DNA from: Candidatus Zambryskibacteria bacterium RIFOXYD1_FULL_40_13
GTDB lineage: Bacteria > Patescibacteriota > Minisyncoccia > Phycocordibacterales > DATDWN01
NCBI GenBank assembly: GCA_001824295.1
Contig: MHWY01000002.1
Location: forward strand, 73,354 to 137,353
Direction of reading: 5' to 3'
Length of the DNA stretch: 64,000 nt
Below the pieces are notes generated by a model. It was not told the DNA's origin. It was given only the letters and a program-made list of their open reading frames with translations, and ran no database searches. This document shows, in pieces, positions 1,814 through 60,043 of the stretch. The position numbers were made by a program, and so were the translations under genes. How positions within the stretch are numbered: the stretch's first letter is position 1; the number at the start of each line of letters is the position of its first letter.

Positions 1814-1822
1814 GATGTATGA

Positions 1823-1947
1823 CCCGGTAGTAGAAAATGACATTGAATAAATTCAAGTAATAAGTAATATGAACAAGTCAACATTAACAACAGATAACCA
1901 TAAAATAACATTTTGCTCGTAGAGCGATGTCATTTTTCACTACCGGG
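1823..1947. repeat. Palindromic element copy 1 (TIRs CCCGGTAGTAGAAAATGACATTG / GATGTCATTTTTCACTACCGGG, ~80-bp AT-rich spacer)
   Basis: The two arms are 20/22 nt complementary. It lies between the rpoA stop and the rplQ start. The spacer contains the gctcgtagagc hairpin. Confidence 0.6.
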
Positions 1948-2295
1948 ATGAATCACCACAAAAAAACCAGAAAATTTGGAAGATTAAAAAAAGTCAGAGA
2001 CGAAATGATGAAGTCTCTTGCCCTGTCTCTTGTTTTAAAAGGCAAAATAAAAACAACAGACGCAAAGGCTAGAGAACTTAGACCTTTTGTGGAGAAACTT
2101 GTTAGCCAAGGAAGAATCGGTACGGTCGCATCAAGGAGAGCACTAGTAGCAAAGGTTGGAAATCTCGGTGCTGACAAGATAGTCAAGGATTTATCACCAA
2201 AGTATCTGAAGAGGGCAGGGGGATATACTCGCATAACAAAACTTCCAGCAAGAGTCAGTGACGGTAGTCTTATGGCCGTTATTGAATTTGTATAA
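1948..2295 (+). CDS. rplQ: 50S ribosomal protein L17
   Basis: The product is L17-like (HHKKTRKFGRLKK...). The start was moved to the second Met (MNHHKK). The 21 nt upstream are a palindromic-element arm, not L17 sequence. Confidence 0.88.
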   Translation: MNHHKKTRKFGRLKKVRDEMMKSLALSLVLKGKIKTTDAKARELRPFVEKLVSQGRIGTVASRRALVAKVGNLGADKIVKDLSPKYLKRAGGYTRITKLPARVSDGSLMAVIEFV

Positions 2296-3686: not shown

Positions 3687-3749
3687 GGTCGGTACCCTCC
3701 ATTTATCAATTTACCACCATTTAATACTCTGTCAATCAGATTTTATATA

Positions 3750-3804
3750 GGAAAACCGCCAGTCGTGCTAGGCTGGCGGAATTCCGCACAGCGCCACGTT
3801 GGCG
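3750..3804 (-). terminator. GC-rich intrinsic terminator T2, paralogous to T1
   Basis: The hairpin ccgccaacgtggcg...ccagcctagcacgactggcgg is followed by TTTTCCTATAT on the minus strand. It lies 13 nt downstream of the ORF ending at 3817. Confidence 0.6.
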
Positions 3805-3816
3805 GTGTTGGTCTGA

Positions 3817-4062: not shown

Positions 4063-4159
4063 ATGGCACCCCCTTTCTTCTTCCTAAGTAATAGCACATA
4101 CCTTTGTATCTGTCAACTATTTTTGAATACTTTAAATACTATGTTAAAATACACACAAC

Positions 4160-4771
4160 ATGACAGATGAAGATAAAAAAGATATTGAAAATAACGACAT
4201 TTTGGCGGAAGAGCCAGAAATAGACACCGACCCTGGAGACGATGTGGTGTTTGAGGATAACACAGAAGTTACAGGAGCTGATTATAAGATTAAAACGGAC
4301 AAACTTCGTACTAAAATAAAAGAATTGGAAAAGAAAAATGCTGAACTCCTAGATGGCTGGCAGAGGGACAAAGCTGAATTCGTTAATGCTAGAAAAAGGG
4401 ACGAAGAGCAGAAAATGGAGTTTTTGAAGTTTTCAAAGGCGGATATTATTGCTGAACTTCTCGCAGTTTTGGATTCTTTTGAATCTGCGTTTAAAAATAA
4501 GGAAGCCTGGGAAAAGGCAGACAAAAATTGGAGAATGGGTGTAGAATACATCCACACTCAACTCATGAACATAATGACTCAGAATGGTTTGAAGGTTGTA
4601 AACCCAGTGGGGGAGAATTATGACCACAATAGGGATGAGGCGGTAGAGACAGTAAAAGTTGACGACGAAAAAGATAATGATAAAATATTGGACGTAATAC
4701 GGGTAGGGTATGAGTTACATGGTAAAGAAATAAGGCCACCAAAGGTAAAAGTTGGACATTATGAAAAATAA
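4160..4771 (+). CDS. grpE: Nucleotide exchange factor GrpE
   Basis: The product has a GrpE-like coiled coil followed by a C-terminal beta domain. The gene lies upstream of dnaK. Confidence 0.93.
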   Translation: MTDEDKKDIENNDILAEEPEIDTDPGDDVVFEDNTEVTGADYKIKTDKLRTKIKELEKKNAELLDGWQRDKAEFVNARKRDEEQKMEFLKFSKADIIAELLAVLDSFESAFKNKEAWEKADKNWRMGVEYIHTQLMNIMTQNGLKVVNPVGENYDHNRDEAVETVKVDDEKDNDKILDVIRVGYELHGKEIRPPKVKVGHYEK

Positions 4772-7275: not shown

Positions 7276-7459
7276 CTTAATTTAGAACACGTATAAATCG
7301 TTGGTACGATTTTACTATTCTCGTCAATCAAGAAAACAATTTTCCTCAGTGCTGGCCCTTTCGCAAACTCCTCGTTGATTACAACTTCGTCAAACAGTGC
7401 TTCGGGCAGGCGCACTTCGTCGTTGTTTTCTAATTGACTGCGAAATGTTCTAAAATTAA
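7276..7459. repeat. Conserved ~150-bp intergenic element, copy B
   Basis: The arms are CTTAATTTAGAAC at 7276-7288 and GTTCTAAAATTAAG at 7446-7459. They are complementary to each other but differ in sequence from the copy-A arms. The core at 7289-7446 matches 3091-3239. Confidence 0.6.
7295..7314 (+). terminator. Intrinsic terminator of dnaK (aaATCGttggtaCGATtttt)
   Basis: A stem plus T-tract lies 24 nt after the dnaK stop codon. It occupies the same position as the rpsI terminator inside the conserved element. Confidence 0.5.
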
Positions 7460-7483
7460 GAAACTATTCCTCTGGTAGGAAAT

Positions 7484-7533
7484 ACGCAAAAACCCACCAA
7501 CGAAAGTGGACTAGTGCGTCCAGTGTTGGTGGG
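7484..7533 (-). terminator. GC-rich intrinsic terminator (cccaccaac...gttggtggg + TTTTTGCGTAT on the minus strand)
   Basis: The hairpin is followed by a T-tract. A near-identical copy lies at 7756-7804. It sits downstream of the small ORF ending at 7543. Confidence 0.6.
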
Positions 7534-7542
7534 GGGTGGTTG

Positions 7543-7707
7543 TTAGAGTTTCTTCGCGAGACTCTTTTCGAGCCATGATAGTGTAAGGAACACTGTCCCC
7601 ATCACACCACCAAGACCAATGCTCTTGGCGAAGGTGACTCCGAAACCCATACTGATAACACAGACGAGAGCGCCGAGTACCAGGCTTGCGATAGCCGATC
7701 TCTTCAT
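7543..7707 (-). CDS. Small hydrophobic protein, 54 aa (MKRSAIASLVLGALVCVISMGFGVTFAKSIGLGGVMGTVFLTLSWLEKSLAKKL). It is in a different frame from track ORF 7511..7744.
   Basis: The ATG at 7707 is preceded by GGAGGAC. The product looks like a signal peptide or transmembrane segment, and a terminator follows. The track ORF reads through the terminator hairpin and is rejected. Confidence 0.5.
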   Translation of the reverse strand: MKRSAIASLVLGALVCVISMGFGVTFAKSIGLGGVMGTVFLTLSWLEKSLAKKL

Positions 7708-7755
7708 GCAGGTCCTCCAAAATAAATAATATATCAGGAATCACAAATAAACAAT

Positions 7756-7804
7756 ACGCAAAAACCCACCAACGAAAGTGGACTAGTGCGTCCGTGTTGG
7801 TGGG
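7756..7804 (-). terminator. GC-rich intrinsic terminator, paralogue of 7484-7533
   Basis: It shares the cccaccaac/gttggtggg stem. It lies 5 nt downstream of the ORF ending at 7809. Confidence 0.6.
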
Positions 7805-7808
7805 TAGA

Positions 7809-8024
7809 CTACTTCAGGCTAGTCATTTTCCGAAGACGGTTGATGACGGCCTTGCCGCAGTAATTATCAGGCTCTGTCCGGTACCACAGGTTCGTCGATA
7901 CCGTGGATTTCTTGAAGCCTCTTTTCCGTAGCTGGGTCTCCACTTCCTTACGTGTGGCTGGGCCAAAAGGCCCATCGTTTCCCCAAATTGTTCCCGTGTA
8001 GTTCACGACATACTTGGTCTCCAT
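7809..8024 (-). CDS. GC-rich ORFan, 71 aa
   Basis: The ATG at 8024 has AAGGAGG 5 nt upstream. A terminator follows. Confidence 0.55.
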   Translation of the reverse strand: METKYVVNYTGTIWGNDGPFGPATRKEVETQLRKRGFKKSTVSTNLWYRTEPDNYCGKAVINRLRKMTSLK

Positions 8025-8158
8025 CTGTGCCTCCTTAACTAATAATACACCAAATAGTTAAGATAGTCAAGTGCAATAATTATCAAAAAATAGTATTATA
8101 AATTCTGAATTATTTGTAGCCATTCGTTGATTCGTATAATTCGCATATTCGTATCTTT

Positions 8159-13787: not shown

Positions 13788-15242
13788 TTACAATTTTTTT
13801 ATAGCTGTTTGTATGCGAGAAGCCGTCTCTTCTTTCCCAAGAATATAGATAAGGGTGAAGGGATCAGGGCTTTTGTCTTTACCCGACAGGGCAACCCTAA
13901 GTGGCCACAGAACTTCTCCCCTACCCTTTTCAGTAGCATAATCAAACAGTAGTGACTTTATTTTCTCCGTGCTAGTAAACAAATTATCGTCAGCTGACTC
14001 CAGCGTGCTTAGACAAAACTCAAGGTGCATCTTTGCAATTTTTTTATCACTACCCTTCCAACTCAGAAGCTCAGCATTATACTCTGGTGAGTGAAAATAA
14101 TACTCTAACTCCCCTGCCCCAACAAGAGCATCTATGTCTCCCCATTTTGATATATGGTCAAAAATTACGGGACACAGCTTCACTAGAAAACGTTCATCAG
14201 CAGAAATCGAATTACTTTTTAGTCTATTAATAATTTCAGTATTTCTCTCATTTTCAGACATCAGTTTCATATGTTCCTTGTTAAGCCAGTCAAGTTTTGT
14301 ACTGTTCAACTGTGCGCCAGATTTCTGTATTTTTGATATTTCAAAAACTTTTATTAATTCCTCAGTTGTAAATATTTCTTTGTCACCCCCAGGGTTCCAT
14401 CCCAGAAAAGCAAGGAAATTAATCATTGCCACTGGCAAATATCCTTCCTTCCTGTATTCCAAAATATCCTTAGCCCCATCTCTTTTCCCAAGTTTTTTCT
14501 TGCCTCCATCTGCCATAATATGTGGTAAGCACGCATATTCTGGTGGATTTACACCAAGAGCTCCATACACAGAAAGGTACTTTGGTGTTGAGGCAATATA
14601 TTCTTGACCCCTCATGACCAAAGTGACACCCATTTCAATATCATCAACTATGTGTGCAAAATTATATGTTGGATAACCATCACTTTTAATAAGAATAAAA
14701 TCATCAAGCATTTCAGGCCCAGCTGACAAATCCCCAAAAACCATATCGTGCCAGTGGTAGTCTTTCACGGTTGGAACCTTGAAACGCAAAGGCATTGTTC
14801 CATCCCAAGGAGGAGGATTCTGTGGTCTGAATTCACGAAAAAGAAAAGGTCTTTTTTCCTCTTCGGCTTTTTTTCTTAACTCTTCAATCTGCTCTTCACT
14901 TGTGTTATCGGTGTAAGCAAAACCACCATCAATTAATTTTTGTGCGTATTTTTTATACAAATCTAACCTTTCTGATTGTAAATACGTGGCACTCGGCCCG
15001 CCAATTCCAGGACCTTCATCCCAATTTAGCCCAAGCCATTTAAGTGACTCCTGTATGTGCTCGACAGAACCCGAAACCTCTCTTTCCTTATCAGTATCCT
15101 CAATACGCAGAATAAATGTACCGTTATTTTTCTTTGTCCACAGCCAGGCATACAAAGCTGCACGAACATTACCAACATGCATAAAACCTGTTGGGGATGG
15201 TGCAAATCTTGTTACTATTTTTTTGTCATTTATATTTTGCAT
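13788..15242 (-). CDS. gltX: Glutamate--tRNA ligase
   Basis: The product shows the class I HIGH motif (PSPTGFMHVGN) and a GluRS-like architecture. Confidence 0.93.
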   Translation of the reverse strand: MQNINDKKIVTRFAPSPTGFMHVGNVRAALYAWLWTKKNNGTFILRIEDTDKEREVSGSVEHIQESLKWLGLNWDEGPGIGGPSATYLQSERLDLYKKYAQKLIDGGFAYTDNTSEEQIEELRKKAEEEKRPFLFREFRPQNPPPWDGTMPLRFKVPTVKDYHWHDMVFGDLSAGPEMLDDFILIKSDGYPTYNFAHIVDDIEMGVTLVMRGQEYIASTPKYLSVYGALGVNPPEYACLPHIMADGGKKKLGKRDGAKDILEYRKEGYLPVAMINFLAFLGWNPGGDKEIFTTEELIKVFEISKIQKSGAQLNSTKLDWLNKEHMKLMSENERNTEIINRLKSNSISADERFLVKLCPVIFDHISKWGDIDALVGAGELEYYFHSPEYNAELLSWKGSDKKIAKMHLEFCLSTLESADDNLFTSTEKIKSLLFDYATEKGRGEVLWPLRVALSGKDKSPDPFTLIYILGKEETASRIQTAIKKL

Positions 15243-15284
15243 TTACTTTATGGACTTTATAAACTTTACAGACTTTCAACTATT

Positions 15285-16424
15285 CTATTTATCATGTTCC
15301 AGGGCAATGGCAACAATCTCTTTCGCTATTAACTTAGCTGAATCTTTTCTTGCAAAATCATTCGCAGATTTTATCATTTTTTCCTTTTCTCCTGGTGTTT
15401 CCAAAATTCTATCAATTTCAGATACAAGGAGACTATCGGCCAAATTCTTCTCTTCTATGACTATTGCTGCGCCGGATCTTGCATAGGAATACGCGTTAGT
15501 CCTCTGGTCGTGGGAGGTCGGTTCTGGGATTGGAATAATAATTGATGGTTTACCCCAAGAAGCAATTTCAAAAATTGTCGAGCCTGCCCTTGAAACGACA
15601 ATATCACAGAGACCAGCAGATGCGCGCAAGTTCAGCAGGTTTAGGTAATCAAAGGGTTTATATCTTTTTCTATCTGTGTTCCCGCGCAGAATGACATCTG
15701 CGACTTCTTGGATTGCCTTAAAGTTATTTTTTCCTGTTTGATGAATTACTTGATACTTACTTAAAAGTCTTGGCAGAGCATCCATGACTACCTCGTTTAT
15801 AAAAACCGCTCCTTGTGAACCGCCAATAATTAGAACAGTAGGAATATCCTCATCTAACCCGAGAATCTCGCCAGCACCAGTGGTTAATGGCTCACGAACT
15901 TCTTTCCTTAGTGGATTGCCTGTATAAGCCACTTTCTCCTTTTTGAAATAATTTATTGCCTCTGGGTAGGATATAGCGATTTTTCTAGCAAATTTACCGG
16001 CCCAGTTGTTAACCTTGCCAGGTGTGCTGTCAGATTCATGAATGACAACAGGTATTCTAAGTATTCTTGCAGCCAAAAGTGTGGGAAAGCTGGCATAACC
16101 ACCCTTACCGAAAACAACGTCTGGATATATTACATAAACTCTCCAGAGAGCATTTATAGAACCAAAAAAAATCTTAAACAAATCAATAAAATTCAAAAAT
16201 AAGTTTTTGATAGAAATTCTTCTTCTAATTTTTCCGGCACTGACAGGAACAAAGGTAATATTGTTTTCAAATAACAGCCCTTCGTTATATGGGTCAGTAG
16301 ACATATAATAAATTTCTGGCCTAAGGAGGTGATTTTCCTTTACCAGCTCATTTATTTCTTCTGCAATTGCAATAATGGGATAGAAGTGTCCGCCACTACC
16401 TCCACCAGTAAGTAATATTTTCAT
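15285..16424 (-). CDS. murG: UDP-GlcNAc:lipid I N-acetylglucosaminyltransferase
   Basis: The N-terminus is GGGSGGHFYP. The gene sits in the mraY-ftsW-murG neighbourhood. Confidence 0.92.
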   Translation of the reverse strand: MKILLTGGGSGGHFYPIIAIAEEINELVKENHLLRPEIYYMSTDPYNEGLLFENNITFVPVSAGKIRRRISIKNLFLNFIDLFKIFFGSINALWRVYVIYPDVVFGKGGYASFPTLLAARILRIPVVIHESDSTPGKVNNWAGKFARKIAISYPEAINYFKKEKVAYTGNPLRKEVREPLTTGAGEILGLDEDIPTVLIIGGSQGAVFINEVVMDALPRLLSKYQVIHQTGKNNFKAIQEVADVILRGNTDRKRYKPFDYLNLLNLRASAGLCDIVVSRAGSTIFEIASWGKPSIIIPIPEPTSHDQRTNAYSYARSGAAIVIEEKNLADSLLVSEIDRILETPGEKEKMIKSANDFARKDSAKLIAKEIVAIALEHDK

Positions 16425-21475: not shown

Positions 21476-22045
21476 TTAGTTATTTGCTGTATCTAGGTCT
21501 TCTTCCTTTTCTTCAGCAACATCTAGCTGTTGACGCAGCTCATTATACTCAGGTAATTCAGAAATATGGCTTAGACCAAGAAATCGTAAAGCATCAGCTG
21601 TTATATTATAACCTATTACCCTCATATCTGTCTCGCTATTTTTCTTCTCTATAAGACCTCTTAACAATAAATTCCGTAAAGAATACTGAGAATTCACACC
21701 TCTGATATATTCAATCTCCTTCTTACTAACCGGTCCCTTGTAGGCGATTATAGACAATGTCTCTATTCCAGATTTTCCTAAATCTTTTTCTCTCTCTTCT
21801 TTAATTATTTTTTCGATTGTTTCTGAATATTCTGGTGCTGTAGTAATAAGAACCTCATCGTTGTGAACCACAAGTCTCACACCCCGCTCGGACAAGGACT
21901 CGGCAAGACTCTTAGTAGCGACCAAAACATCCTCCTTGGATATATCCAGTGTTTTAGCCAGAAAATCAATACTGACCGGCTCAGCCAAATAAAAAAGTAC
22001 CGCTTCTATCTTATTCACTAATTGTCCTTGGTTTTCTTGCATCAT
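21476..22045 (-). CDS. scpB: Segregation and condensation protein B
   Basis: The product has ScpB winged-helix repeats. The gene lies downstream of scpA. Confidence 0.88.
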   Translation of the reverse strand: MMQENQGQLVNKIEAVLFYLAEPVSIDFLAKTLDISKEDVLVATKSLAESLSERGVRLVVHNDEVLITTAPEYSETIEKIIKEEREKDLGKSGIETLSIIAYKGPVSKKEIEYIRGVNSQYSLRNLLLRGLIEKKNSETDMRVIGYNITADALRFLGLSHISELPEYNELRQQLDVAEEKEEDLDTANN

Positions 22046-22091
22046 GAATTTACTTTACAAACTTTATAACTTTTTACTTTTAACCTGAAAA

Positions 22092-22851: not shown

Positions 22852-24144
22852 TTAAGGATTTAAACGTTTAACATCACGAGGCAAATATGTCGCCTCCCTA
22901 ACATTTGGCAAATCAAGAATCTTCATAACAAATCTTCCTGGGCCTATTCCAGCACCACCGTGAGGAGGACAGCCGTATCTGAAGAAATTTATATAATCCT
23001 TCAATGGTTCAAGAGACATGCCCTTATCCTCTGCTTGTTTAATCAAAACATCCACTCTGTGCTCCCTTTGGGCGAGTGTCGTCACCTCAATCCCTTTGTA
23101 CAAGAGGTCAGCCCTTCTTGAAAAATCACTTCCCTCCTTTAGTCTCATGTGGTAAAAAGCACTTTTTGATTTATGATACTCAGTGATAAAAACAAAATCA
23201 TGGTTTTTTTCCTTTTTGACATGCTCACAAATAACTCTCTCTTCTTCAGGCGAAAGGTCGTATGGCTCTGCACTCTCAACACCAAGCTTAAGAAGAATCT
23301 CCTTAGCTTCTATCATAGTAATACGAGGAAATGGTCGCTCAGGAACAGAAATGTTTGTATCAGGAAATTTTTCAAGCACCGACTTAAATCCTTCAACTAT
23401 CATTCCCTCTTCCGCATCCATAACATCATTATGAGAGTCAATATATGATATTTCGAAATCCCAACCTGTAAACTCTGTTAAGTGCCTTGTAGTAAAAGAC
23501 AATTCTGCCCGAAAAACTGGTGCAACCATAAATACTCGCTCAAATCCACTGGCCATACCCATTTGTTTGTAAAACTGTGGTGATTGAGCTAGATATGCCT
23601 TCCTGTCAAAATAGTTCACAGTGAAAACATCTGCACCAGTTTCTGAAGCGGTAGACATGAAAGCAGGTGGGTACAACTGAACAAAGTTATTTTCATGCCA
23701 ATATTTTCTAAAGCCCTTTTCTAATTCAGTCCAGACTTGAAATATCCTAGTTTTTTCTGGTTTCCTTAAATCTAGCCAGCGGTAGTCGAGTCTTGTTGGG
23801 GCTTCTGTTTCTTCGTCTCCCCCCTTCATCACAACGGGAATTGGTAGTTCAGGATCCGCAACAGAGAGTACCTCAATGCTTTTAACAGAAATCTCGAAAC
23901 CACCCATAGCTTGTTTTGCTTCCTTGACAGTACCAGTTATTTTTACCACTGACTCATGTGAAAGGTTCTTTGCTGTTTCAAAAGATGTGCTACTTGTCTC
24001 AACAACATTCTGAATAATACCCGTTACATCTCTAAGAAGAAGAAAAATTATTTTGCTTTGCACACGAAGTGTGTGAACAAAACCCATCACAACCACCTCC
24101 TTGCCAACATGCTGACCAATCTCTTTGTTGTATGTTCTTTTCAT
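22852..24144 (-). CDS. aspS: Aspartate--tRNA ligase, archaeal/eukaryotic type (class IIb)
   Basis: The product has class II motifs (FRAE, GGAGIGPGR) and an N-terminal OB domain. Its ~430-aa length fits the archaeal-type AspRS. The start was moved to ATG 24144 (MKRTYNK), downstream of the T-box terminator. Confidence 0.85.
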   Translation of the reverse strand: MKRTYNKEIGQHVGKEVVVMGFVHTLRVQSKIIFLLLRDVTGIIQNVVETSSTSFETAKNLSHESVVKITGTVKEAKQAMGGFEISVKSIEVLSVADPELPIPVVMKGGDEETEAPTRLDYRWLDLRKPEKTRIFQVWTELEKGFRKYWHENNFVQLYPPAFMSTASETGADVFTVNYFDRKAYLAQSPQFYKQMGMASGFERVFMVAPVFRAELSFTTRHLTEFTGWDFEISYIDSHNDVMDAEEGMIVEGFKSVLEKFPDTNISVPERPFPRITMIEAKEILLKLGVESAEPYDLSPEEERVICEHVKKEKNHDFVFITEYHKSKSAFYHMRLKEGSDFSRRADLLYKGIEVTTLAQREHRVDVLIKQAEDKGMSLEPLKDYINFFRYGCPPHGGAGIGPGRFVMKILDLPNVREATYLPRDVKRLNP

Positions 24145-24147
24145 AAT

Positions 24148-24380
24148 ATTTCCAATGGAGAAACAAAAAAGCCCCTCCGAATTCATTTAATAATAAATTC
24201 GCAGGGGCGATTTCGTTCGCGGTGCCACCCTGTTTTGTTCTCTTTATTTGCATATCGGAGCAAATCCGGAAGATTCTACTTGCCTCTTTAGAGACTTTCT
24301 TTCTTCACCTCACCGGTGTTGGCCGGATCATAGGATTAACTACATTATATAAACTCTGATAAGAATTGCAAATACCTTTT
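24148..24380 (-). promoter_or_regulatory. T-box riboswitch leader of aspS
   Basis: The minus strand contains the canonical T-box sequence aacAGGGTGGCACCGCGaacg (plus strand 24218-24231). It is followed by the terminator GCCCCTGCGAATT...AATTCGGAGGGGC + TTTTTTG and then the aspS ATG. The specifier codon was not resolved. Confidence 0.6.
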
Positions 24381-25450: not shown

Positions 25451-26017
25451 CTAAACTCGAGATGGATCACGAATGTCCTCTTCTTTCACGATGACTTGGT
25501 CAAGCAACCCAAGTGAGAGAGCATCACCCACGGGTAGCTGACAGTCAAGCTCGCACATTTTACGAATTTCTTCGTGCGATCTTCCTGTTCGGTTGACGAG
25601 AATTTCGTCGAGTTTTTTCTGGTCGGCCTCCATCGAATTGATGTAATCGGCAAGCATCATCGGATCTCTTGCCACATCAAGCCTGAACGCAGTACTTGTA
25701 ATGTGGTGGACCAGTATTCTGGAATGGGGCGTTGCTGTGCGCCAATCACAAGCCTGGAGAATCACTCCAGAGATTGAGTTTGCAATGCCATTCACAATAC
25801 CAATCTTATGTCCGACGTAGAACCTCAACAGATCGAAGATATCAAGTCCGGCAGTTACGTTACCGCCCTTACTTGTTATGTAGATCGTAATTGGCGGGGA
25901 GCCTCTTATGAGGAGGTTCCAAATCGCCGAGGATACGTACGCATGGGTTTCTGTCGTGACTTCTCCAGAGATGGACAATCGGTTCTGCGACAGAGCAATC
26001 GCTTGATCCTGTGTCAT
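25451..26017 (-). CDS. ClpP/S14-family serine peptidase (GC-rich, acquired-looking)
   Basis: The product contains ITSKGGNVTAGLDIFD (a ClpP signature), a candidate Ser (GIANSISG) and a candidate His (ILVHHI). It has an AGGAGG SD. The GC content is about 50% or more, against a backbone of about one-third. Confidence 0.75.
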   Translation of the reverse strand: MTQDQAIALSQNRLSISGEVTTETHAYVSSAIWNLLIRGSPPITIYITSKGGNVTAGLDIFDLLRFYVGHKIGIVNGIANSISGVILQACDWRTATPHSRILVHHITSTAFRLDVARDPMMLADYINSMEADQKKLDEILVNRTGRSHEEIRKMCELDCQLPVGDALSLGLLDQVIVKEEDIRDPSRV

Positions 26018-26099
26018 GGGGCCTGCCTCCTTGGGGGTGTACGGTCTAAGCTAACAATATGTGAGTTCAAAATTTTAGTCAAATATCGTGCATGTTTAG

Positions 26100-26134
26100 A
26101 CAAAAGAAATCCGCCACCCAAAGCTGGGTGGCGG
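26100..26134 (-). terminator. GC-rich intrinsic terminator after the ABC exporter (ccgccacccagctttgggtggcgg + TTTCTTTTG on the minus strand)
   Basis: A perfect hairpin plus T-tract lies directly downstream of the gene ending at 26148. Confidence 0.6.
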
Positions 26135-26147
26135 AAATTTACGCAAC

Positions 26148-28028
26148 TTACACAACAATTCCCTGGTCGTCAGCGAGCATCTTGAAAGTTCTGGAGATGC
26201 CGTAGAGTTCCTCAAACGACGAGGCTACTGCCTCAACCTGAGTGTCGCCATTTGTCAGCTCGTCGCTAGACCTGAGAACGACAAACTTGTCGCAGAGGTG
26301 CCTAACAGTAGAGAGCCGATGAGCAATGACCACCGCTGTGACATTCCCCGACAGAAGCTTCTGTAGCCCGGCCTGAACAAGCCTCTCGGTAGTTGAGTCC
26401 AAGCTTGATGTGGCTTCATCGATGAGCATCATTCGAGGACGCTTGATAGCGGCAGCTCCGATGATGAGCCTCTGTGCTTGCCCACCAGAGAGCTTGATTC
26501 CGTTTGTGCCAACTTCGGTATAGATGCCGTTCGTCAGACGCTTTCCGAAGTCAATCTGGAGGTCACGCATGAGGCTCCAGATTTCTGGGTCACCCATTTT
26601 CTGCTTTTCCTCATCACTGAGTGCATATGTCAGGTTGTAGCGGATACTTCCGTCGAAAATCTGAGCCTGCTGTGGAATGTATCCGAGAGTTCTAATCCAC
26701 GATGCGGAGTTGACCTGTCTCATGTCAATTCCGTTCACTAGGATTTTGCCGTTTGACGGATCCATCGAACGCAAGAGAAGTCGGGCCAAGGTTGACTTGC
26801 CTGCTCCTGACTGGCCGATGATTGCCACCTTCTGCCCAGCGTCTACCGCGAAGCTTACGCGCTGTAGTGCGTGTGGGTTTTCCTCTTCGTCTGTACTATC
26901 CAAGGTGGGGCCGTGTTCCGGGTATGTGTACGACACATCCTGGAACTCAATTGCTATCGGAGCATCCTGGAGGATTTCCACGCAACCCTCTGCATCCGTA
27001 GCTTCAGGTGGTATGGACAATGCCTCTATCTTGGCTTTGACGGCAGGCATGTTCCAGTTAATCATGTGTTCAATCCTGCCGATTTGCCACACACTTGATA
27101 CGATGGTACTTGTCCACATGAAGATAGGATACAAGTTGCCGATGTTCATGTGACCCTGCCACACCTGCCATGTGCCATAGCTAATGACAGTCATGAAGGC
27201 AAGCATGGTCGCAGTATCGCGAAAGGCGTTGTGCTTGATGAACCAGAGCCAGAACCTACGGTCATCCTTGAGGTTGTCGGCAAACTCGACCGACATCTCG
27301 CGAAGTTCCCTTGTGGACATGCCACTGGTCTTAACTCTCTCCACCTTGGACCATCGGTCAAGTCGCCTACGATTGAGAACACGGAAACGCTTGTCGATGT
27401 TTGTGCACTCCAAAACCACCTTGTGGTTAAGAAAGAGTGTCCATGTGATGTAAACCACGAACGAGAGACTGATTGCCAAACCAGAGACCGGTGAGACAAC
27501 CCAGATGAGAATGTAGGCAACCAGAAGAGTTGATAGAACCTGAAAACCTTCGAACAGGAGAAGCCCTTGAAGGTCTAGGAGTTTCCACCGACCCTTGTCA
27601 ATGTTGCCAACATTCAGAGTGCCACTGTGCTCAGCGTGTTGCCCCAAGGACTTCTCGAACATCATCCGTGTGATGTAGTCGTCGAGTGTACCCTGGAGAT
27701 AGCCAAGTATGAGCTCTCTGTAGGTGGCCTGCTTGAAGTGAAACAGTTTCTGGATTGCCATGAGCGCGAATGTCACGGCAATCCCTACCGCCACATACTC
27801 CCGACTTTTCTCCGCGAGACCGCGGAAAATTAGTGAGATTGTGAACGGGATTGTCATTTGAGTCAGGATGTTTGCGGACATGTAGCTAAACATTCTCCGC
27901 AACCATTTCACCTGCTCAGGCGATTCCAGAAACCTCCAAGTCCAAACAAGAACCCTTAGGGATTCCTTTGCACTTGAAAGGTATTCGGTAATCGTGGCCG
28001 GCGTTTTTTCTCTGTCATCGAAGTCCAT
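26148..28028 (-). CDS. ABC exporter with fused permease and ATPase (GC-rich island)
   Basis: The product has six N-terminal TM helices plus Walker A (GQSGAGKST), the ABC signature LSGGQAQR and Walker B (MMLIDEATS). The start was moved to ATG 28028 (MDFDD), which has AAGGAGG upstream. Confidence 0.85.
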   Translation of the reverse strand: MDFDDREKTPATITEYLSSAKESLRVLVWTWRFLESPEQVKWLRRMFSYMSANILTQMTIPFTISLIFRGLAEKSREYVAVGIAVTFALMAIQKLFHFKQATYRELILGYLQGTLDDYITRMMFEKSLGQHAEHSGTLNVGNIDKGRWKLLDLQGLLLFEGFQVLSTLLVAYILIWVVSPVSGLAISLSFVVYITWTLFLNHKVVLECTNIDKRFRVLNRRRLDRWSKVERVKTSGMSTRELREMSVEFADNLKDDRRFWLWFIKHNAFRDTATMLAFMTVISYGTWQVWQGHMNIGNLYPIFMWTSTIVSSVWQIGRIEHMINWNMPAVKAKIEALSIPPEATDAEGCVEILQDAPIAIEFQDVSYTYPEHGPTLDSTDEEENPHALQRVSFAVDAGQKVAIIGQSGAGKSTLARLLLRSMDPSNGKILVNGIDMRQVNSASWIRTLGYIPQQAQIFDGSIRYNLTYALSDEEKQKMGDPEIWSLMRDLQIDFGKRLTNGIYTEVGTNGIKLSGGQAQRLIIGAAAIKRPRMMLIDEATSSLDSTTERLVQAGLQKLLSGNVTAVVIAHRLSTVRHLCDKFVVLRSSDELTNGDTQVEAVASSFEELYGISRTFKMLADDQGIVV

Positions 28029-28116
28029 CTCACTCCTCCTTCTACACAAGCCCTAATTGTTGTTGAAGTTGTCAAAGAACTACTGTATCAGAGCAAAGCT
28101 CGATACACGGAAACTT

Positions 28117-42822: not shown

Positions 42823-44067
42823 TTATTCAGATCTTAGTGCTTCTATTGGGTCCATTCTTGAGGCAGAACGAGCTGGAAAAACCCCAAAGAAAATACCTAT
42901 AGAAGCAGATACACCAAAGGCAAGTAAGACTGCGTAAATTGGTACGGAAAAAGTCCAGGTCATATTGGCATTTGTCGCGATTAGGGACACTACCCATCCC
43001 AGAAATGCTCCAAAAGCAATACCTATTATTCCACCAAAAACAGTTACCAAAACCGCCTCCATTAGAAATTCATTCATTATATCTCCCTCCCTGGCACCCA
43101 AAGCTTTTTTAAGGCCAATTTCTGCAGTACGCTCTGTCACAACAACATACATAATATTCATAATACCTACACCACCAACAATCAAAGAAATAGTTGCGAT
43201 TGCAATGAGAAGATAAGTGATTCCAGAAAAAATGGTATTGAATGTTGCCATGGCCTCATCCATGGTTTGAACACTGAAGTCATCTTTATATGGGTCAGTT
43301 ATATTATGGTTATCTCGTACCAAAATTTTTATTTGCTCTACGGTTGAATCGGCTTTGGTTATATCCGCCAACTGAATAATACCTATAGACATATAATCTA
43401 TACCCAATAATTTTTTTTGGGCAGTGGTGATTGGGATAAAGACGATGCCGTCTGTATCAGAAAGCGCTCCTTGTGATTCATACACTCCTATCACCTGAAA
43501 GTTCAAATTACCAAGTCGGAATAGTTTTCCAAGCGGGTCGTCTTGTCCAAACAAGTCCTCTGCGACCTTGCTACCAAGTATGGCAACGGTCGCGCCACTG
43601 CTATCTTCGGCCTCACTATATACCCTACCCTTTGCAAGTTCTGTTTTATCAAAATTAAAACGAGATGCTGACGAGGCATAATAGATTGTACTTTTTTTAT
43701 TACTTCTGTAGATAGCTAGAGCTTGGCCTGTAACTATTCCATAACTGTCAACAACATTCGGCAACTTTTCTATATCATCCAAATCCCTTTGTTTAAAACT
43801 TGTTATCGTAACACCACTGAAGGCAGAACTTATACTTTGTGAGTTTGAGGCCCTGTTCTTGGTTGTGGGAGGGACTTTGGTCTGAATAAATATTGTGTTG
43901 GTACCAAGAGTATCAACCTCGTTGTCTATAAGAGAGCGGAATCCTGCGCCAGCAGACAAAACTAGAATAACCGTACCAATACCAATAATAATACCAAGCA
44001 TTGTCAGGGCAGTTCGTCCGGGATTTGATTTAAGTGCTTTGATGGATTGTTTTAGTGCTGTAATCAT
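42823..44067 (-). CDS. ABC transporter permease, FtsX/MacB-like
   Basis: One N-terminal TM helix is followed by a large periplasmic domain and a C-terminal three-TM FtsX domain. Confidence 0.85.
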   Translation of the reverse strand: MITALKQSIKALKSNPGRTALTMLGIIIGIGTVILVLSAGAGFRSLIDNEVDTLGTNTIFIQTKVPPTTKNRASNSQSISSAFSGVTITSFKQRDLDDIEKLPNVVDSYGIVTGQALAIYRSNKKSTIYYASSASRFNFDKTELAKGRVYSEAEDSSGATVAILGSKVAEDLFGQDDPLGKLFRLGNLNFQVIGVYESQGALSDTDGIVFIPITTAQKKLLGIDYMSIGIIQLADITKADSTVEQIKILVRDNHNITDPYKDDFSVQTMDEAMATFNTIFSGITYLLIAIATISLIVGGVGIMNIMYVVVTERTAEIGLKKALGAREGDIMNEFLMEAVLVTVFGGIIGIAFGAFLGWVVSLIATNANMTWTFSVPIYAVLLAFGVSASIGIFFGVFPARSASRMDPIEALRSE

Positions 44068-44113
44068 AAATTTACTTTACTAACTTTATGGACTTTATAG
44101 ACTTTCGACTATT

Positions 44114-45385
44114 TTATTCGTACCTTAACGCCTCTATGGGGTCAAGTCTTGATGCTTTGAATGATGGATAAAGTCCAAATATAACTCCGGTCAAAATAGA
44201 AACACCCACGGCCAAGACTACAGAAGTAATAGAAATAACAAACTCCCAATCAAAATCCAGATACTGCATGAGCATAGCCATGAGATAGGAAACAATAACA
44301 CCAACGACAATTCCTATAAGCCCACCAATAGATGTAAGAATACTTGCCTCCAATATAAATTGTCGCATGATTACTCTGTTTGTAGCTCCAACGGCCTTTC
44401 TCAAACCAATCTCTCGTGTTCTCTCGGCAACAGTAACAAGCATAATATTGAGAATTCCAATACCGCCGACAATGAGAGCAACCGCGGCCATTGAGGTTAG
44501 AAACAAACTTAATGCTGATGTAATAGTGGTGAGCATCTCCACGGCACTTGCTTGGTTTCTCACGGTAAAATCTATATCGTCATCCGAAATGATATGGTGT
44601 CTCTGTTTCAACACCCTCGTTACATCATCAATTGTTTGATCAATATTATCCGCCGAATCCACTTTCAAACTAATGGCCTGTAAATGATGGATACCAAGAA
44701 GCTGTCCTTGTGCAATAGCTAGCGGAATAAATATTTGGTCATCTTGATCTTGAAAAAAAGCACTACCTCTGGGTGTTATCACGCCCACAATTCTAAGTGG
44801 TACACCACCAGCGTTTTCTTGTGAGGCACTTCTGACCTTGATGATTTGGCCAACTGGGTCAACGCCAGTGCCGTCAAACAAGGCACTACTTACCGTTGAA
44901 CCAAGTACCACGACATTGGCGGAACCATCTATATCTCCGGAATCCATAAACTGTCCCTCCTGCATTGTAAAGTTAACCACTTTTGGATACCCAGAATCAG
45001 TGCCAACAAAATTTGTATCAACGCTTTTGTTTTGCCAAGTCACAGTAGCCACACCGTTTACTACAGCACTTACACCAATAGCGTGCGGAACCTGAGAAGG
45101 AGAACGCAACGCTTCGGTATCAGCGTTAACAAGTGTAGTAATAATAACTCCGTAAACCTGCGCCGGTGGGCCCTTTGGATCACTTTTGCCAGGCTGAACA
45201 CTTAGGAGGTTTGAACCGAGTTTGTTTACTTGTCCCAAGACAAGCGACTGAGCGCCAGCCCCAAGTGAAATAATTATTATCACACCAGCAACACCGATGA
45301 CGATACCCAGCATAGTCAGAAATGACCGCCCTTTTCTTGCCAGAAGATTCCTTACCGTCATTTTAATTGTTGAGATAAAACCCAT
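44114..45385 (-). CDS. ABC transporter permease, FtsX/MacB-like (second paralogue)
   Basis: The product has the same architecture as the previous permease. Confidence 0.85.
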   Translation of the reverse strand: MGFISTIKMTVRNLLARKGRSFLTMLGIVIGVAGVIIIISLGAGAQSLVLGQVNKLGSNLLSVQPGKSDPKGPPAQVYGVIITTLVNADTEALRSPSQVPHAIGVSAVVNGVATVTWQNKSVDTNFVGTDSGYPKVVNFTMQEGQFMDSGDIDGSANVVVLGSTVSSALFDGTGVDPVGQIIKVRSASQENAGGVPLRIVGVITPRGSAFFQDQDDQIFIPLAIAQGQLLGIHHLQAISLKVDSADNIDQTIDDVTRVLKQRHHIISDDDIDFTVRNQASAVEMLTTITSALSLFLTSMAAVALIVGGIGILNIMLVTVAERTREIGLRKAVGATNRVIMRQFILEASILTSIGGLIGIVVGVIVSYLMAMLMQYLDFDWEFVISITSVVLAVGVSILTGVIFGLYPSFKASRLDPIEALRYE

Positions 45386-47819: not shown

Positions 47820-48281
47820 TCACTTCAACCCCTTACAGTTAGACGCTGGTAAGTATCCAGCATTACGGGCTTCTTCTGTGGAGGCAAACTTAATCTGGTT
47901 TTCTGGTTTAATCATTTTGACAGTGCCACACCATGGAAAATAATATTTTTTGCCATTTTTTGAGCCGATGACTTCCCCATTATTCACTGTAGAATTGGGG
48001 CTAATTTGGGCCACATTCTGGGAAAGTGACTGCAATACTGCCCCCGTCTGAACATTAGCCACATATTCAATCTTTATTGGTTCGTGGTGTTCCTCAAGAG
48101 CTGAAAGCCTACCAAGGGCGAAGAAAATAATACCAGTGAGTATTATGACGAATAATACATAAAACGACTTTACCCGGTAGTGAATTTTGGCATCACTTAC
48201 TGTTTGCTCTGAAGGAGCAATGCCAAAATCTACTACCGGGTTGCTTTTTCTCCATAAATCCTTTATACTCATGAAGTTCAT
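47820..48281 (-). CDS. Hypothetical membrane-anchored protein with a C-terminal Cys-containing domain. A palindromic element lies in-frame in its N-terminal tail.
   Basis: The product has one TM helix and a C-terminus ...KYYFPWCG...GYLPASNC. No alternative in-frame start exists downstream of the palindromic element at 48173-48240. Confidence 0.5.
   Translation of the reverse strand: MNFMSIKDLWRKSNPVVDFGIAPSEQTVSDAKIHYRVKSFYVLFVIILTGIIFFALGRLSALEEHHEPIKIEYVANVQTGAVLQSLSQNVAQISPNSTVNNGEVIGSKNGKKYYFPWCGTVKMIKPENQIKFASTEEARNAGYLPASNCKGLK
48173..48240. repeat. Palindromic element copy 2 (CCCGGTAGTGAATTTTGGCAT ... ATGCCAAAATCTACTACCGGG), inside CDS 47820..48281
   Basis: The 21-bp inverted repeat has 2 mismatches and a 26-bp spacer containing the ttgctctgaaggagcaa hairpin. 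It is translated in-frame as the N-terminal tail of the host protein. Confidence 0.6.
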
Positions 48282-57217: not shown

Positions 57218-57232
57218 AACACCTCTACTTTT

Positions 57233-57300
57233 CCCGGTAGTAGATTTTGCCATTGCTCTTTCAGAGCGGGCAAAGCCCAATGTCAAAATTCACTACCGGG
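57233..57300. repeat. Palindromic element copy 3 (CCCGGTAGTAGATTTTGCCATTG ... CAATGTCAAAATTCACTACCGGG)
   Basis: The 23-bp inverted repeat has a 22-bp spacer with nested hairpins (gctctttcagagc; gggcaaagccc). The right arm overlaps the last codons and supplies the TAG stop of the 916-aa gene. Confidence 0.6.
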
Positions 57301-60043
57301 TTTTATACTTACTTAAAATATTTTCTTCTATCTCCTTCCTGTCCCCACCATAAGTCAAATACGAAAGCTGTCTTAGAGAGTCCATTATTTCTGGATTGCC
57401 CTTTGGGGGAAAACCCTCTTTAAAGTTAAAGGCCTTTGTTGTCTTTCCACCGACAAGCATTTTTATATAGGCACTAAGGTTATCTATATTCATAATATCT
57501 TTTGCTGTAAATACTGGACTGAATTGTTTTTCTAGGAATTCTGCATCTTCTGCTCCAACCCGGAAGGAAACGATAGAGCCCACATTTCCAAAAACAGCAT
57601 CACGAATATCTTCTTGTAGTTGAGCGATAAACTGGTGGGCAATATTTAGTGACAACTTATATTTTCTAGCTTCAGAAAGAATAGTTGAGATTGAGTCTGT
57701 GGTAATGTTCTGAAACTCATCGATGTATAGATAAAATGGTGGAAAATCCTTGCCGAGCGAATCAACGCGAGAAAGAGCGGCCATCAAAATCTTACCCACA
57801 AGAATAAGTCCAATAAGGTTTGCATTTATATCGCCAAGTCTTCCTTTCGATAGGTTTACAAGTAAAATCTTTTTGTTATCCATTATCTCTCGGAAATCAA
57901 ATGATGATTTTTCTTGAGCAATAATCGGACGCATAATATCATTTGCAAGAAAGACATCAAACTTACTTGTGATATAGGGAACAATGTTTGCAAGTGACGC
58001 TTCCCCACCAGCCTTTTCTGCCACCTCTGTCCAAAACTGAACCACCACAGGATTCTTGCATCGAGAAATTTTCAAATCGCGGAAGGCTTTGTTCGTCATA
58101 ACTCTAGAAACATCAAGCAGTGTACAACCACTATCTGGGTCTTCTATGACAAGCATCGTAGCGTTTCTGAAATACTGTTCAAACATAGGACCAAGGGACT
58201 CGGGTACTCCACCATACAACTTTTGGAAGATACTAAACAACTCGTTAACAACAAAGGTCTTCTGTTCTGGGTGTGACCTATCGTATTCAAGCATATTGAG
58301 GGCCATTGGTCTCTCTGTGTGGCTTGGGTCAAAATATATGACATCGTGAAAGCGTTCTTGTGGAATGTTAGCGAGTATATCCTGAACATCACTGCCGTGC
58401 GGGTCAATAAAACAACATCCCTTTCCTGCATTAATATCTTGGATAATCATATTTTTTAGGAATACGGTTTTTCCGGTTCCTGTCTGCCCTATAACATAAA
58501 CATGCCTTAGTCTGTCATCGTCACGCATGTATATCGGTGTTTCAATATTACGATAACTGTTTGTGCCCAGAAATGTACCTTCTGTGCCCATCTCGGCAGG
58601 AGGTGGGGCAAATATGGCCTGGGTTTGTTTAAGCTGTGGAGTTGCATCAAGAGCTGAATTCTGGAAATGAATGACTGATGATATCTCGTGAAGATTGAGT
58701 GGCAGAAGCTGTGTCTCATCATAACTTCTGAAAGAGAAAGCCCTAAACATTTTTTGCAATGCAGTTTTATCAAGTCTCTTTGGTTTAAGTCCATTTGCAG
58801 ATGGGTCTGTAAACTGGTTGAAACTTGATTCCAGTCCACGCAGAATCCTCTCTGCATCTAACCTACTCTGGGCAGAAGCTATAAGACGAATGTTTGTGGC
58901 AACAATAGTACTTGCCATTTTCTGTTTTATTTTCTGTATTGCCTCTGTGTCTATTGGCTTTTTCTCCTCACCTTCCTTTGGGGGCGCTTTAAACAAAGAA
59001 AAAACAGTCTTTTTGAATTCGCCCGTTATTGTTTCTGGTAAATCTACGGCTTCTTTCAATGGCACACCTTTCTCTATCTGATCTATGGCATATTTGTATT
59101 TCTTATGGAAATAGTCCTCTTTTGGAGCAAAAACAATTTGAATCCCAGCCCCCTCTCCATTTTTCTGAATCTTTGAAAAACTATTTAGAATAATGTTGAG
59201 TGGGTCGTGGTCAAAGCTCTCATATGTTTTGAATGGATAAATCGGGTTATTGGTTGACTCCAGGTATGACCCTAGCGAGATACCGTCTTGATTGAATATG
59301 TTGTAATCAGATGTTGCCTCGGTCAGCTTGGCATTACTGAAAACAGCCACGATCTGCTTTTCAAACAAGGCCTTGTAGGCATTTGGAACAGAAACATAGA
59401 AAACAAACTGGTCACTGCCATTTGCGTTGGCAATTTCTAAAACGATATAATTCTTCTTGTAGTTCTTTGTATCATCCTTGGAAATAACAGAGAGCATTCC
59501 AGACAGAAACTGCTCCATGCTGGAAATAAGTTCTTTCAGAGGTTTGCTCTTTTCCTTTCCATCCAAATCAAGGTCCTCCGGCAAGACAACTTCATAAAGT
59601 GTCATTCCGAGTCCACGAAACTCTTCATCTGATATGTTGAGACCCTTCGCATCATAACCATGCTTCAAATACTGAGTAAGGAAACGATGGAAATCATCTT
59701 CTAGATGTGGGTCTTTGAATCCAGCTAAAACTGACATAGTATTTTTTATGCCATTTTCGCTTAGGATGCTCAATAATTCTTCTATTTTCTTGTCATGGGT
59801 TTCTGGCTCAAGATTCAAAACAATTGATTCCATATTGGCCTTGGCCATAGCATAAGTATCATCTAAAACTTGGGTTGGTAAAATGTTTTTATAGCGTTCA
59901 ATTTCCCCCTTAACAACATCATCAATTTTGTAATCTGCCTTAGTCGTGCGAAGTTCAAGTTCCTTATTTGAAATCTGCTCACGCAAGAAAGCTATTTCTT
60001 CCTCTGGACTAGTAAAGTTAAGACCTTCAAGATTTTTCTCCAT
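57293..60043 (-). CDS. Large soluble P-loop ATPase. The C-terminal ~400 aa are VirD4/TrwB/TraD (type IV coupling protein)-like; the N-terminal ~500 aa are unknown.
   Basis: The product has Walker A VIGQTGTGKT and IDPHG...YFDPS (cf. TrwB VDPNGD). LYIDEF...KYKLSLNIAHQF...QLQ matches the TrwB Walker B/arginine-finger region. No N-terminal TM helices are evident. Confidence 0.7.
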   Translation of the reverse strand: MEKNLEGLNFTSPEEEIAFLREQISNKELELRTTKADYKIDDVVKGEIERYKNILPTQVLDDTYAMAKANMESIVLNLEPETHDKKIEELLSILSENGIKNTMSVLAGFKDPHLEDDFHRFLTQYLKHGYDAKGLNISDEEFRGLGMTLYEVVLPEDLDLDGKEKSKPLKELISSMEQFLSGMLSVISKDDTKNYKKNYIVLEIANANGSDQFVFYVSVPNAYKALFEKQIVAVFSNAKLTEATSDYNIFNQDGISLGSYLESTNNPIYPFKTYESFDHDPLNIILNSFSKIQKNGEGAGIQIVFAPKEDYFHKKYKYAIDQIEKGVPLKEAVDLPETITGEFKKTVFSLFKAPPKEGEEKKPIDTEAIQKIKQKMASTIVATNIRLIASAQSRLDAERILRGLESSFNQFTDPSANGLKPKRLDKTALQKMFRAFSFRSYDETQLLPLNLHEISSVIHFQNSALDATPQLKQTQAIFAPPPAEMGTEGTFLGTNSYRNIETPIYMRDDDRLRHVYVIGQTGTGKTVFLKNMIIQDINAGKGCCFIDPHGSDVQDILANIPQERFHDVIYFDPSHTERPMALNMLEYDRSHPEQKTFVVNELFSIFQKLYGGVPESLGPMFEQYFRNATMLVIEDPDSGCTLLDVSRVMTNKAFRDLKISRCKNPVVVQFWTEVAEKAGGEASLANIVPYITSKFDVFLANDIMRPIIAQEKSSFDFREIMDNKKILLVNLSKGRLGDINANLIGLILVGKILMAALSRVDSLGKDFPPFYLYIDEFQNITTDSISTILSEARKYKLSLNIAHQFIAQLQEDIRDAVFGNVGSIVSFRVGAEDAEFLEKQFSPVFTAKDIMNIDNLSAYIKMLVGGKTTKAFNFKEGFPPKGNPEIMDSLRQLSYLTYGGDRKEIEENILSKYKTR

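Follow-up and report, generated by a model that had tools for sequence, protein, structure and literature searches.

The DNA analysed here (the window) is a stretch of 64,000 nt from contig MHWY01000002.1 of Candidatus Zambryskibacteria bacterium RIFOXYD1_FULL_40_13, and it carries a short palindromic element in three copies. [quoted passage not shown] They are probably non-autonomous miniature copies of a very small element family that is widespread in Patescibacteria, in which ~315-bp relatives encode a GIY-YIG nuclease that would mobilise both forms. A stronger claim, which we put forward tentatively and with somewhat less than even confidence, is that the ~315-bp elements represent a new enzymatic class of autonomous transposon, smaller than any other autonomous one known. 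Their transposase would be a bare SLX1-like GIY-YIG nuclease that recognises folded ends and makes 4-nt staggered cuts.

Three palindromes and their host genes

The original prediction, made from the letters of the window alone, placed the palindrome at 1823-1947, 48173-48240 and 57233-57300 with terminal inverted repeats (TIRs) common to all three, and rechecking these coordinates in the sequence found every copy in place. The terminal 9-mer CCCGGTAGT occurs 6 times in the window, as 3 inverted pairs, where 0.14 occurrences are expected, and a count of 6 was reached in 0 of 100 shuffles. The 21-mer consensus CCCGGTAGTRRAWWWTGNCAT has 6 matches with 0 mismatches (all six arms) against an expectation of 0.05. 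These counts lie far beyond what chance would give. Each is also flanked by a 4-bp direct duplication (ATGA for copy 1, TTTT for copy 3, and a decayed TTTA/TTGC for copy 2). The combination of TIRs and target-site duplications (TSDs) identifies the copies as mobile elements, i.e. MITEs.

The small internal hairpin claimed for all copies is found in 3/3 as GCTC-N(3-5)-GAGC, and the extra AT-rich interior of copy 1 accords with its 125 bp, compared with 68 bp in copies 2 and 3. Two arm variants exist, AGT-AGA(-TTTT) and AGT-GAA(-TTTT), which usually stand opposite each other as an A.C plus a G.T pair. At stem positions 13-15, copies 2 and 3 have TTT/AAA and copy 1 has the swapped AAA/TTT, with pairing kept. 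Folded as single-stranded DNA and compared with shuffles, copy 2 reaches -21.5 kcal/mol (z -8.3), copy 3 -20.3 (z -7.3) and copy 1 -18.5 (z -5.3). The copies, their duplications and the genes that they touch are as follows.

1819..1822, + strand: left TSD of copy 1, ATGA; original rplQ start codon, 7 nt 3' of a TAAAAT -10-like box
1823..1947, + strand: copy 1, long-form MITE, 125 bp; arms CCCGGTAGTAGAAAATGACAT / ATGTCATTTTTCACTACCGGG; AT-rich interior plus GCTCGTAGAGC hairpin
1948..1951, + strand: right TSD of copy 1, ATGA; ATG 1948-1950 is the current rplQ start codon
47820..48281, - strand: host gene of copy 2, 153 aa (annotated as 150 aa, from M4); single-pass membrane protein
48169..48172, no strand: decayed TSD of copy 2, TTTA on the + strand; inferred original TTGA (TCAA on the coding strand)
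48173..48240, - strand: copy 2, short-form MITE, 68 bp, inside the coding sequence of the small membrane protein; read as (N)PVVDFGIAPSEQTVSDAKIHYR(V)
48241..48244, no strand: decayed TSD of copy 2, TTGC on the + strand; inferred original TTGA
57229..57232, no strand: left TSD of copy 3, TTTT, a direct duplication
57233..57300, + strand: copy 3, short-form MITE, 68 bp; two inner hairpins, GCTCTTTCAGAGC and GGGCAAAGCCC
57293..60043, - strand: VirD4/TraG-like ATPase gene, 916 aa (Pfam T4SS-DNA_transf, TraG-D_C)
57301..57304, no strand: right TSD of copy 3, TTTT; part of AAA A on the ATPase coding strand

Copy 1 abuts the rplQ start codon with its right TIR, as had been noted: the element ends ...CCGGG and is followed directly by ATGAATCAC, the rplQ start. 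A promoter-like TTGAGT-16-TAAAAT faces rplQ at 1784-1811, its TAAAAT box at 1806-1811. An element ~85 per cent identical to copy 1 is present at an unrelated site in another genome (L070).

Copy 2 lies wholly within the open reading frame (ORF) at 47820..48281 (- strand). The original prediction had found no start codon downstream, and indeed there is no in-frame ATG, GTG or TTG in or directly after the copy, so the protein must be translated through it. Judged by its reading frame, copy 2 is a translated in-frame insertion, with the predicted peptide NPVVDFGIAPSEQTVSDAK. It sits in the N-terminal tail of the protein, ahead of the transmembrane helix; the protein also has a conserved C-terminal KKYYFPWCG...NCKGLK domain. 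The whole protein is 100% identical to P0001, a hypothetical protein of a Candidatus Zambryskibacteria metagenome-assembled genome (MAG), and a gene with an identical product is also found in GCA_003497585.1 DNNP01000002.1 and in GCA_001823625.1.

The host protein has 273 homologues, and the alignment that we examined covers 28 of them. Orthologues of 122-130 aa read MSIKDLxEK-IKPFY... and are without a block of precisely 24 residues that the window protein and several others (P0002-P0005, P0012, P0029) carry between EK and IKPFY; this block begins NPVV(D/N)FG and finishes AKI(H/Y)Y(R/W)V, the in-frame translations of the two arms. A decayed insert is found at the same position in the more distant orthologues P0072, P0078, P0093, P0114 and P0091. 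The orthologue comparison proposed earlier thus came out in favour of an insertion, with most orthologues lacking exactly the 24 codons and some carrying the block at the same site. In the DNA itself, L162 and L163 have empty sites that read GAAAAAATCAAGCCG (the empty-site string is also given as ...ATCAAGCCG). The occupied site in L161 reads ATCAA, then CCCTGTAGTG...CTACAGGG, then CCAAGCCG, with CCAAG as the right flank. Comparing empty with occupied DNA gives TCAA as the target of copy 2, and 68 + 4 = 72 nt is 24 codons. Among the copy 2 orthologues, the AGA/GAA arms differ while the orientation of the interior stays constant. We considered this arm difference as a mark of orientation and rejected it, since all four combinations occur and the arms switch within these orthologues.

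For copy 3, the claim that the TAG in its TIR is the stop codon of the ATPase gene holds: the ORF ends ...AAA ACC CGG TAG, with the last 8 nt (..CC CGG TAG) inside the copy. Without copy 3 and one TTTT, the ATPase would end ...SKYKSRGV (stop). The actual stop in the window comes from the TIR, and the closest orthologues end two residues before that point, at ...KYKK (stop). Given where the orthologues end, copy 3 lies at the natural end of the gene and alters at most a few residues.

The family in Patescibacteria and its GIY-YIG relatives

The same family of paired repeats is present in many Patescibacteria relatives. An exact-pattern scan of one genome per species (596 Gb) gave at least 80 loci. 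Among the loci listed, all paired matches were in Patescibacteria MAGs (Paceibacterota; Zambryski-, Taylor-, Vogel-, Kaiser- and Nomurabacteria), and the single matches in other phyla are consistent with the ~35 chance matches expected in 596 Gb. Viral contigs had 0 matches to the 21-mer pattern. From the listed loci and the window we extracted 57 paired elements. The MITEs are 62-88 bp (short form) or 120-141 bp (long form; 124-141 bp in the extracted set) and have no ORF of their own. TSDs of 3-5 bp flank 42 of 56 copies, compared with 9 of 285 shifted controls; the mode is 4 bp and TTGA/TCAA is commonest. Arms are ~90 per cent identical among 40 elements, and near-identical long-form elements occur at unrelated sites. 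Most copies are intergenic, a few bases from gene ends, and are dispersed among housekeeping genes. The repeat family in relatives, the TSDs and the presence or absence of copy 2 together uphold the original description of a MITE-like palindrome able to insert in-frame into genes. A full-text literature search with incomplete coverage turned up no account of the repeat, of Patescibacteria MITEs, or of GIY-YIG genes flanked by TIRs and duplications.

The interiors of the short MITEs vary far more than their arms (identity between copies ~57 per cent, compared with 90 per cent), and two adjacent hairpins are predicted in 72.5 per cent of interiors but in only 8.5 per cent of dinucleotide shuffles. 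Related copies show compensatory changes (GTCTGTC/GGCAGAC, GCCAGC/GCTGGC, GTCCGC/GCGGAC). We judged the conservation of the inner hairpins by shuffle controls, as the stems vary in length and can be aligned only through per-sequence folding, which is circular. The short MITE is predicted to fold as a fully paired three-way junction on either strand. The interior is thus constrained in fold rather than in sequence.

Elements with the same ends also occur in a longer form. At positions 3517-3833 of L022 there is a 317-bp element with ends CCCGGTAGTGAATTTTCAACT...AGTTGAAAATCTACTACCGGG and a CATA TSD. Its sole ORF, of 91 codons with the stop in the right arm, encodes a GIY-YIG domain (Pfam PF01541, E 1.2e-14). 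We searched metagenome contigs with the nuclease protein alone, independently of the repeats, which yielded 375 relatives, of which 80 loci were kept. At nearly all of the 80, the GIY-YIG ORF is bracketed by inverted repeats of the same type with duplications. These loci include 55 distinct GTAG-anchored elements with a median length of 314 bp (302-355). Other GIY elements have related CCGTTAGA-type or different repeats. The full-length architecture is ~300-320 bp, with 16-25-bp TIRs of the form N4-GTAG-(T)RRA... followed by ~5 nt, and one ORF of 85-91 codons. The ORF begins 16-31 nt from the left end and has its stop in or beside the right TIR across deeply diverged TIR subfamilies, and GTAG at arm positions 5-8 is conserved across subfamilies. 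TSDs of the 55 elements are 4 bp in 32/55 and 3-5 bp in 43/55, with TATG 16 times and TGGA 7 times. By strict criteria, the elements form three size classes of 60-80, 120-150 and 300-320 bp.

Several MITEs adjoin GIY elements with identical subfamily-specific arms and a TATG duplication (L118, 1891-1963 and 1968-2280; L123; L126, 60-135 and 140-461). Such sharing between neighbours is the usual signature of an autonomous/non-autonomous pair. A candidate cognate enzyme was found, the ~90-aa GIY-YIG nuclease in ~315-bp elements with the same termini, and it is not a classical transposase.

Other arrangements were seen at individual loci. Elements form head-to-tail pile-ups with one 4-bp duplication between neighbours (TATG, MITE, TATG, GIY element, TATG-gene) at L118 1875-2300, L126 40-480, L107, L091 and L092, where a duplicated target beside an existing element was evidently reused. 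Nested in the 3' part of a GIY-YIG element at L096 (~2270-2310) is a ~38-bp micro-MITE, TCCCGTAGTAG-TTCGCCAAAAGGCGAA-TCACTACAGGA, with 11-nt ends, one hairpin and the TSD TAGG; its make-up suggests that ~11 nt per end and one hairpin may be enough for mobilisation. The 3' end of rny is occupied by the 317-bp GIY-YIG element in L022 (CATA) and, at the same site, by a 129-bp MITE in L059 (3434-3562; CATA/CGTA) with different inner arms; the site took two separate insertions, or else the interior was swapped. In the syntenic counterpart of the copy 2 region in L161, a Zambryskibacteria relative, a GIY-YIG gene of 88 aa amid transporter genes (5421-5723) is enclosed by the perfect 16-bp inverted repeat ATCCGCACACTAACTC. 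This repeat differs from the GTAG type, so the TIR plus GIY-YIG architecture reaches beyond the GTAG subfamilies.

Copies 1 and 3 are typical members of the family in where they lie. An ATG of an ORF of at least 60 codons falls within 3 nt of the element end in 41/106 elements, compared with 20/780 controls, and an upstream ORF of at least 80 codons is stopped within the first 12 nt of an arm in 17/106 elements, compared with 17/780 controls. In L022 and L059, rny is also stopped by the element (...EYAR and stop, with the TAG in the arm). Start-codon abutment and stop donation are therefore family-wide habits. GIY ORFs and the genes that they abut are co-directional by 26:4, and a -10-like box lies 4-10 nt ahead of the outer ATG at 15/37 sites, compared with 15 per cent of control ORF starts. 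These figures suggest that elements insert, or survive, at leaderless starts, where the host promoter would express the nuclease.

The nuclease itself is a bare catalytic domain plus a basic helix, ~90 aa, of the SLX1/UPF0213 clade. It has the features of the GIY-YIG superfamily, namely the GIY and YIG motifs, the central Arg, the C-terminal Glu and the alpha/beta fold, and Y3, Y5, Y17, G19, R27, H31, N32 and E63 are invariant in the alignment. From these residues, the active site looks intact and the enzyme functional. Profile comparison with solved structures places UPF0213 proteins and SLX1 closest by sequence. An AlphaFold model (predicted local distance difference test score, pLDDT, 86.8) superposes on Slx1 with a root-mean-square deviation of 1.4-2.1 A over ~72 aligned columns, and UPF0213 BH0048 and At-HIGLE also match. 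The profile retrieved 2,823 clusters (50% identity) at E <= 1e-10 from a library of 1.84 billion proteins, and all of the named matches are Patescibacteria. As called, many family members in the protein library (P0367-P0506) carry 25-45 additional residues at the N-terminus (length 110-130, with the profile match beginning at residue 25-46); we suspect that these extensions are ORF calls from a host ATG reading through the left repeat.

Mobilisation and alternative explanations

If the nuclease mobilises both the ~315-bp elements and the MITEs, it would recognise the element ends, perhaps as an extruded or single-stranded hairpin or cruciform. SLX1-type enzymes cleave branched DNA, and for this reason the ends may be seen as a folded junction. 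The nuclease would cut both element ends and target with a 4-nt stagger, giving rise to the duplication, and host ligation or repair would finish the move. Two routes would be consistent with the subfamily duplications TATG and TGGA: a sequence-specific choice of target, or cutting and ligation by way of cohesive ends. Compared with the full-length element, short MITEs have two short hairpins in place of the ORF and the long form has an AT-rich stretch, and both keep the termini.

If the ~315-bp elements do form a new class, the three-way-junction fold of the MITEs could be part of the mechanism, imitating a branched substrate. The family would then be specialised on start codons that have a -10 box just upstream and are presumably leaderless, where the host promoter would drive the nuclease and the duplication would restore the ATG.

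Within the main explanation, the compact fold of the MITEs would limit harm to host mRNA. Copies persist only where they are harmless: at start codons, where the duplication remakes the ATG (copy 1); in last codons, where the TAG ends the frame (copy 3); or in a dispensable tail, as 72 nt inserted in frame (copy 2). The pattern of harmless sites is plain in the data, and its cause in a compact genome is what we infer.

Several points weigh against a GIY-YIG transposase. We know of no GIY-YIG enzyme that acts as one; to our knowledge these enzymes hydrolyse DNA and are not known for strand transfer. Neither tblastn nor a profile search of six-frame translations found a GIY-YIG ORF within the 64-kb window. 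The hairpin interior of the MITEs bears no sequence trace of the GIY-YIG ORF, and TSD length varies from 3 to 5 bp. All 14 contigs with the P0122 element have it at one and the same locus, flanked by a peptidase M50 gene and rpsL, with no recent movement evident. Some GIY-YIG homologues have no recognisable TIRs (L033 261-494, L040 1641-1886, L129, L160). GIY-YIG endonuclease genes, moreover, often invade other mobile DNA (Dunin-Horkawicz et al. 2006, PMC1564403), so that a passenger role is conceivable.

The last two points, and the want of any precedent for GIY-YIG transposition, also speak for an alternative in which the palindromes are ordinary MITEs moved in trans by a conventional transposase (e.g. 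a DDE enzyme with 4-5-bp duplications) and the GIY-YIG gene is a selfish passenger between the repeats. TIRs with short TSDs are, besides, the classical DDE signature. We nevertheless regard this explanation as unlikely. Across ~170 loci, no transposase-sized ORF (DDE, DEDD, HUH, serine, tyrosine) was found between matching TIRs, and the only enclosed ORF was the ~90-aa GIY-YIG. TIR pairs 330-6000 bp apart in the first 80 loci proved to be separate MITEs only, with no enclosed autonomous transposase element. A passenger would also have to account for the fixed position of the GIY ORF across deeply diverged TIR subfamilies and for the subfamily-specific TIRs common to neighbouring MITEs and GIY elements. 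In L047, a TIR pair 1.2 kb apart matched by chance within a restriction-modification operon (Gallionellaceae MAG). IS1380 (CC ends, 4-5-bp duplications) was a guess only as parent and has been superseded by the GIY-YIG result.

It is a good deal less probable that the palindromes are a conserved structured RNA or cis-regulatory hairpin (an RNase III site, terminator or mRNA stabiliser) that is selected at gene boundaries and does not move. The elements do lie at gene boundaries, they keep the two-hairpin fold while the sequence varies, and as RNA they fold very stably, the minimum free energy being ~-35 to -46 kcal/mol in the majority of copies and -23 to -47 overall. Against this, the TSDs and the presence/absence polymorphism indicate insertion, some copies lie inside coding sequence, and Rfam gave no match at the three copies, either at the gathering threshold or in E-value mode. 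Among 25 copies with an assignable direction of transcription, the AGA arm comes first in 13, the GAA arm in 9, and 3 are symmetric. G.U makes up only 4 per cent of stem pairs, and neither strand folds better than the other; both findings point to a constraint at the level of folded DNA, or of RNA from either strand. On the strength of the arm order, the equal folding and the few G.U pairs we rejected a strand-specific RNA function. A mobile element may still have a secondary effect as RNA.

REP/REPIN-type palindromes mobilised by a RAYT (Y1 HUH) transposase are very improbable here: the elements form hairpins with the conserved GTAG, and GTAG-tagged palindromes are a known REP superfamily (PMC3733652), but the arms are true TIRs of one element rather than two separate REP hairpins, the ORF with these termini is GIY-YIG and not HUH, and TSDs are present where REPINs and IS200/IS605 are generally known to make none.

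Other features of the window and comparison with known systems

Elsewhere in the window, two ~1-kb stretches have no credible ORFs and lie in 2-kb bins of above-average G+C content (0.44-0.45): 3067-4160, after rpsI, and 7287-8158, between dnaK and dnaJ. They have direct repeats in common (3089-3240 with 7287-7448 at 77-88 per cent identity; 3266-3319 with 3735-3788), an identical 41-mer at 7481-7521 and 7753-7793, and an inverted repeat at 3067-3091 / 3238-3262. Neither stretch has an Rfam match, and they may be another repeat family or a structured RNA family. Intergenic blocks of a 9-bp-period motif (ACTTTATGG ACTTTATAA ACTTTACAG ACTTT...) at 128-170, 15230-15298, 22041-22067 and 44063-44127, on both strands, may represent arrays of binding sites or UP-like promoter elements. 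Upstream of a 444-aa ORF at 22852..24186 lies a sub-threshold match to the T-box leader (24200-24340, - strand; 45.7 bits compared with a gathering threshold of 93, E 7.5e-7). The bin 26001-28000 has a G+C content of 0.51, compared with ~0.38 for the window, and consists mostly of a 633-aa ORF at 26148..28049; it may be foreign DNA or a compositionally unusual gene.

Patescibacteria, also known as the candidate phyla radiation (CPR), have some of the most compact genomes and are usually called poor in mobile DNA. The family described here means that they host an abundant, ancient transposable element, which persists through insertions that are neutral almost to the single nucleotide (start, stop, in-frame). 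If the GIY-YIG nuclease does mobilise it, this would add a new chemistry beside the DDE, DEDD, HUH, serine, tyrosine and Cas1 transposase classes, lower the size limit for an autonomous transposon to ~0.3 kb, and provide at least some of the large, uncharacterised UPF0213 group with a biological role. In practice, gene callers extend or truncate ORFs through the elements (e.g. P0001, annotated from M4), and the elements are useful as markers of strain-level variation in CPR populations.

The original prediction likened the palindromes to Correia elements and to Rickettsia palindromic elements (RPEs). We take both likenesses as behavioural and not as homology, on the grounds of the host lineage, the 4-bp duplication and the absence of an Rfam match at the copies. 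Correia elements are MITEs of Neisseria with 26-bp TIRs and a TA duplication. Like the elements here, they are ~60-150 bp, have TIRs and short duplications, lie in many copies at gene boundaries, form long hairpins when transcribed and may carry outward promoters, to which the promoter-like hexamers facing rplQ at copy 1 correspond. The elements in Patescibacteria differ in their 4-bp (3-5) duplication, which is not TA, in an interior that is a fold-conserved hairpin pair, and in their candidate GIY-YIG partner. No autonomous partner is known for Correia elements, and DDE insertion sequences are the source of other bacterial MITEs. RPEs are likewise palindromes of a reduced genome that are inserted in-frame and translated, as is copy 2, which adds 24 residues and whose block is kept in several species. 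They belong to another lineage and have another sequence. Most copies here are intergenic or at gene edges, with TSDs and an identifiable autonomous-looking relative.

REPIN/RAYT and IS200/IS605 systems also combine hairpin repeats, with GTAG near the end, and a single small nuclease gene in a very small element, and may depend on folded DNA. Theirs is an HUH Y1 enzyme acting on subterminal hairpins without a duplication, in contrast to the GIY-YIG enzyme, 4-bp duplications and TIRs found here. Integron attC sites were not matched: the ends are CCCGGTAGT rather than RYYYAAC/GTTRRRY, the copies are dispersed and not arrayed by an integrase, and TSDs are present.

For the nuclease, the best matches in sequence and structure are SLX1 and UPF0213 (YhbQ/BH0048-type) proteins. 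The catalytic Y, Y, R, H/N and E are kept, and the cleavage of branched DNA by SLX1 fits hairpin ends. SLX1, however, serves the host in repair, has a RING domain and partners with SLX4, and UPF0213 proteins are not known to be mobile, whereas TIRs and TSDs enclose the element protein. Homing endonucleases of the GIY-YIG type (I-TevI, Seg) resemble it as selfish GIY-YIG genes spreading within mobile DNA. They have a separate DNA-binding domain, cut the cognate empty allele and rely on homologous repair, with no TIRs or TSDs; the elements here have both, occupy many unrelated sites, and encode only the bare catalytic domain with its basic helix. The MITE family is a new example of an established class, and its 0.3-kb GIY-YIG-only partner has no apparent counterpart in the known transposon classes.

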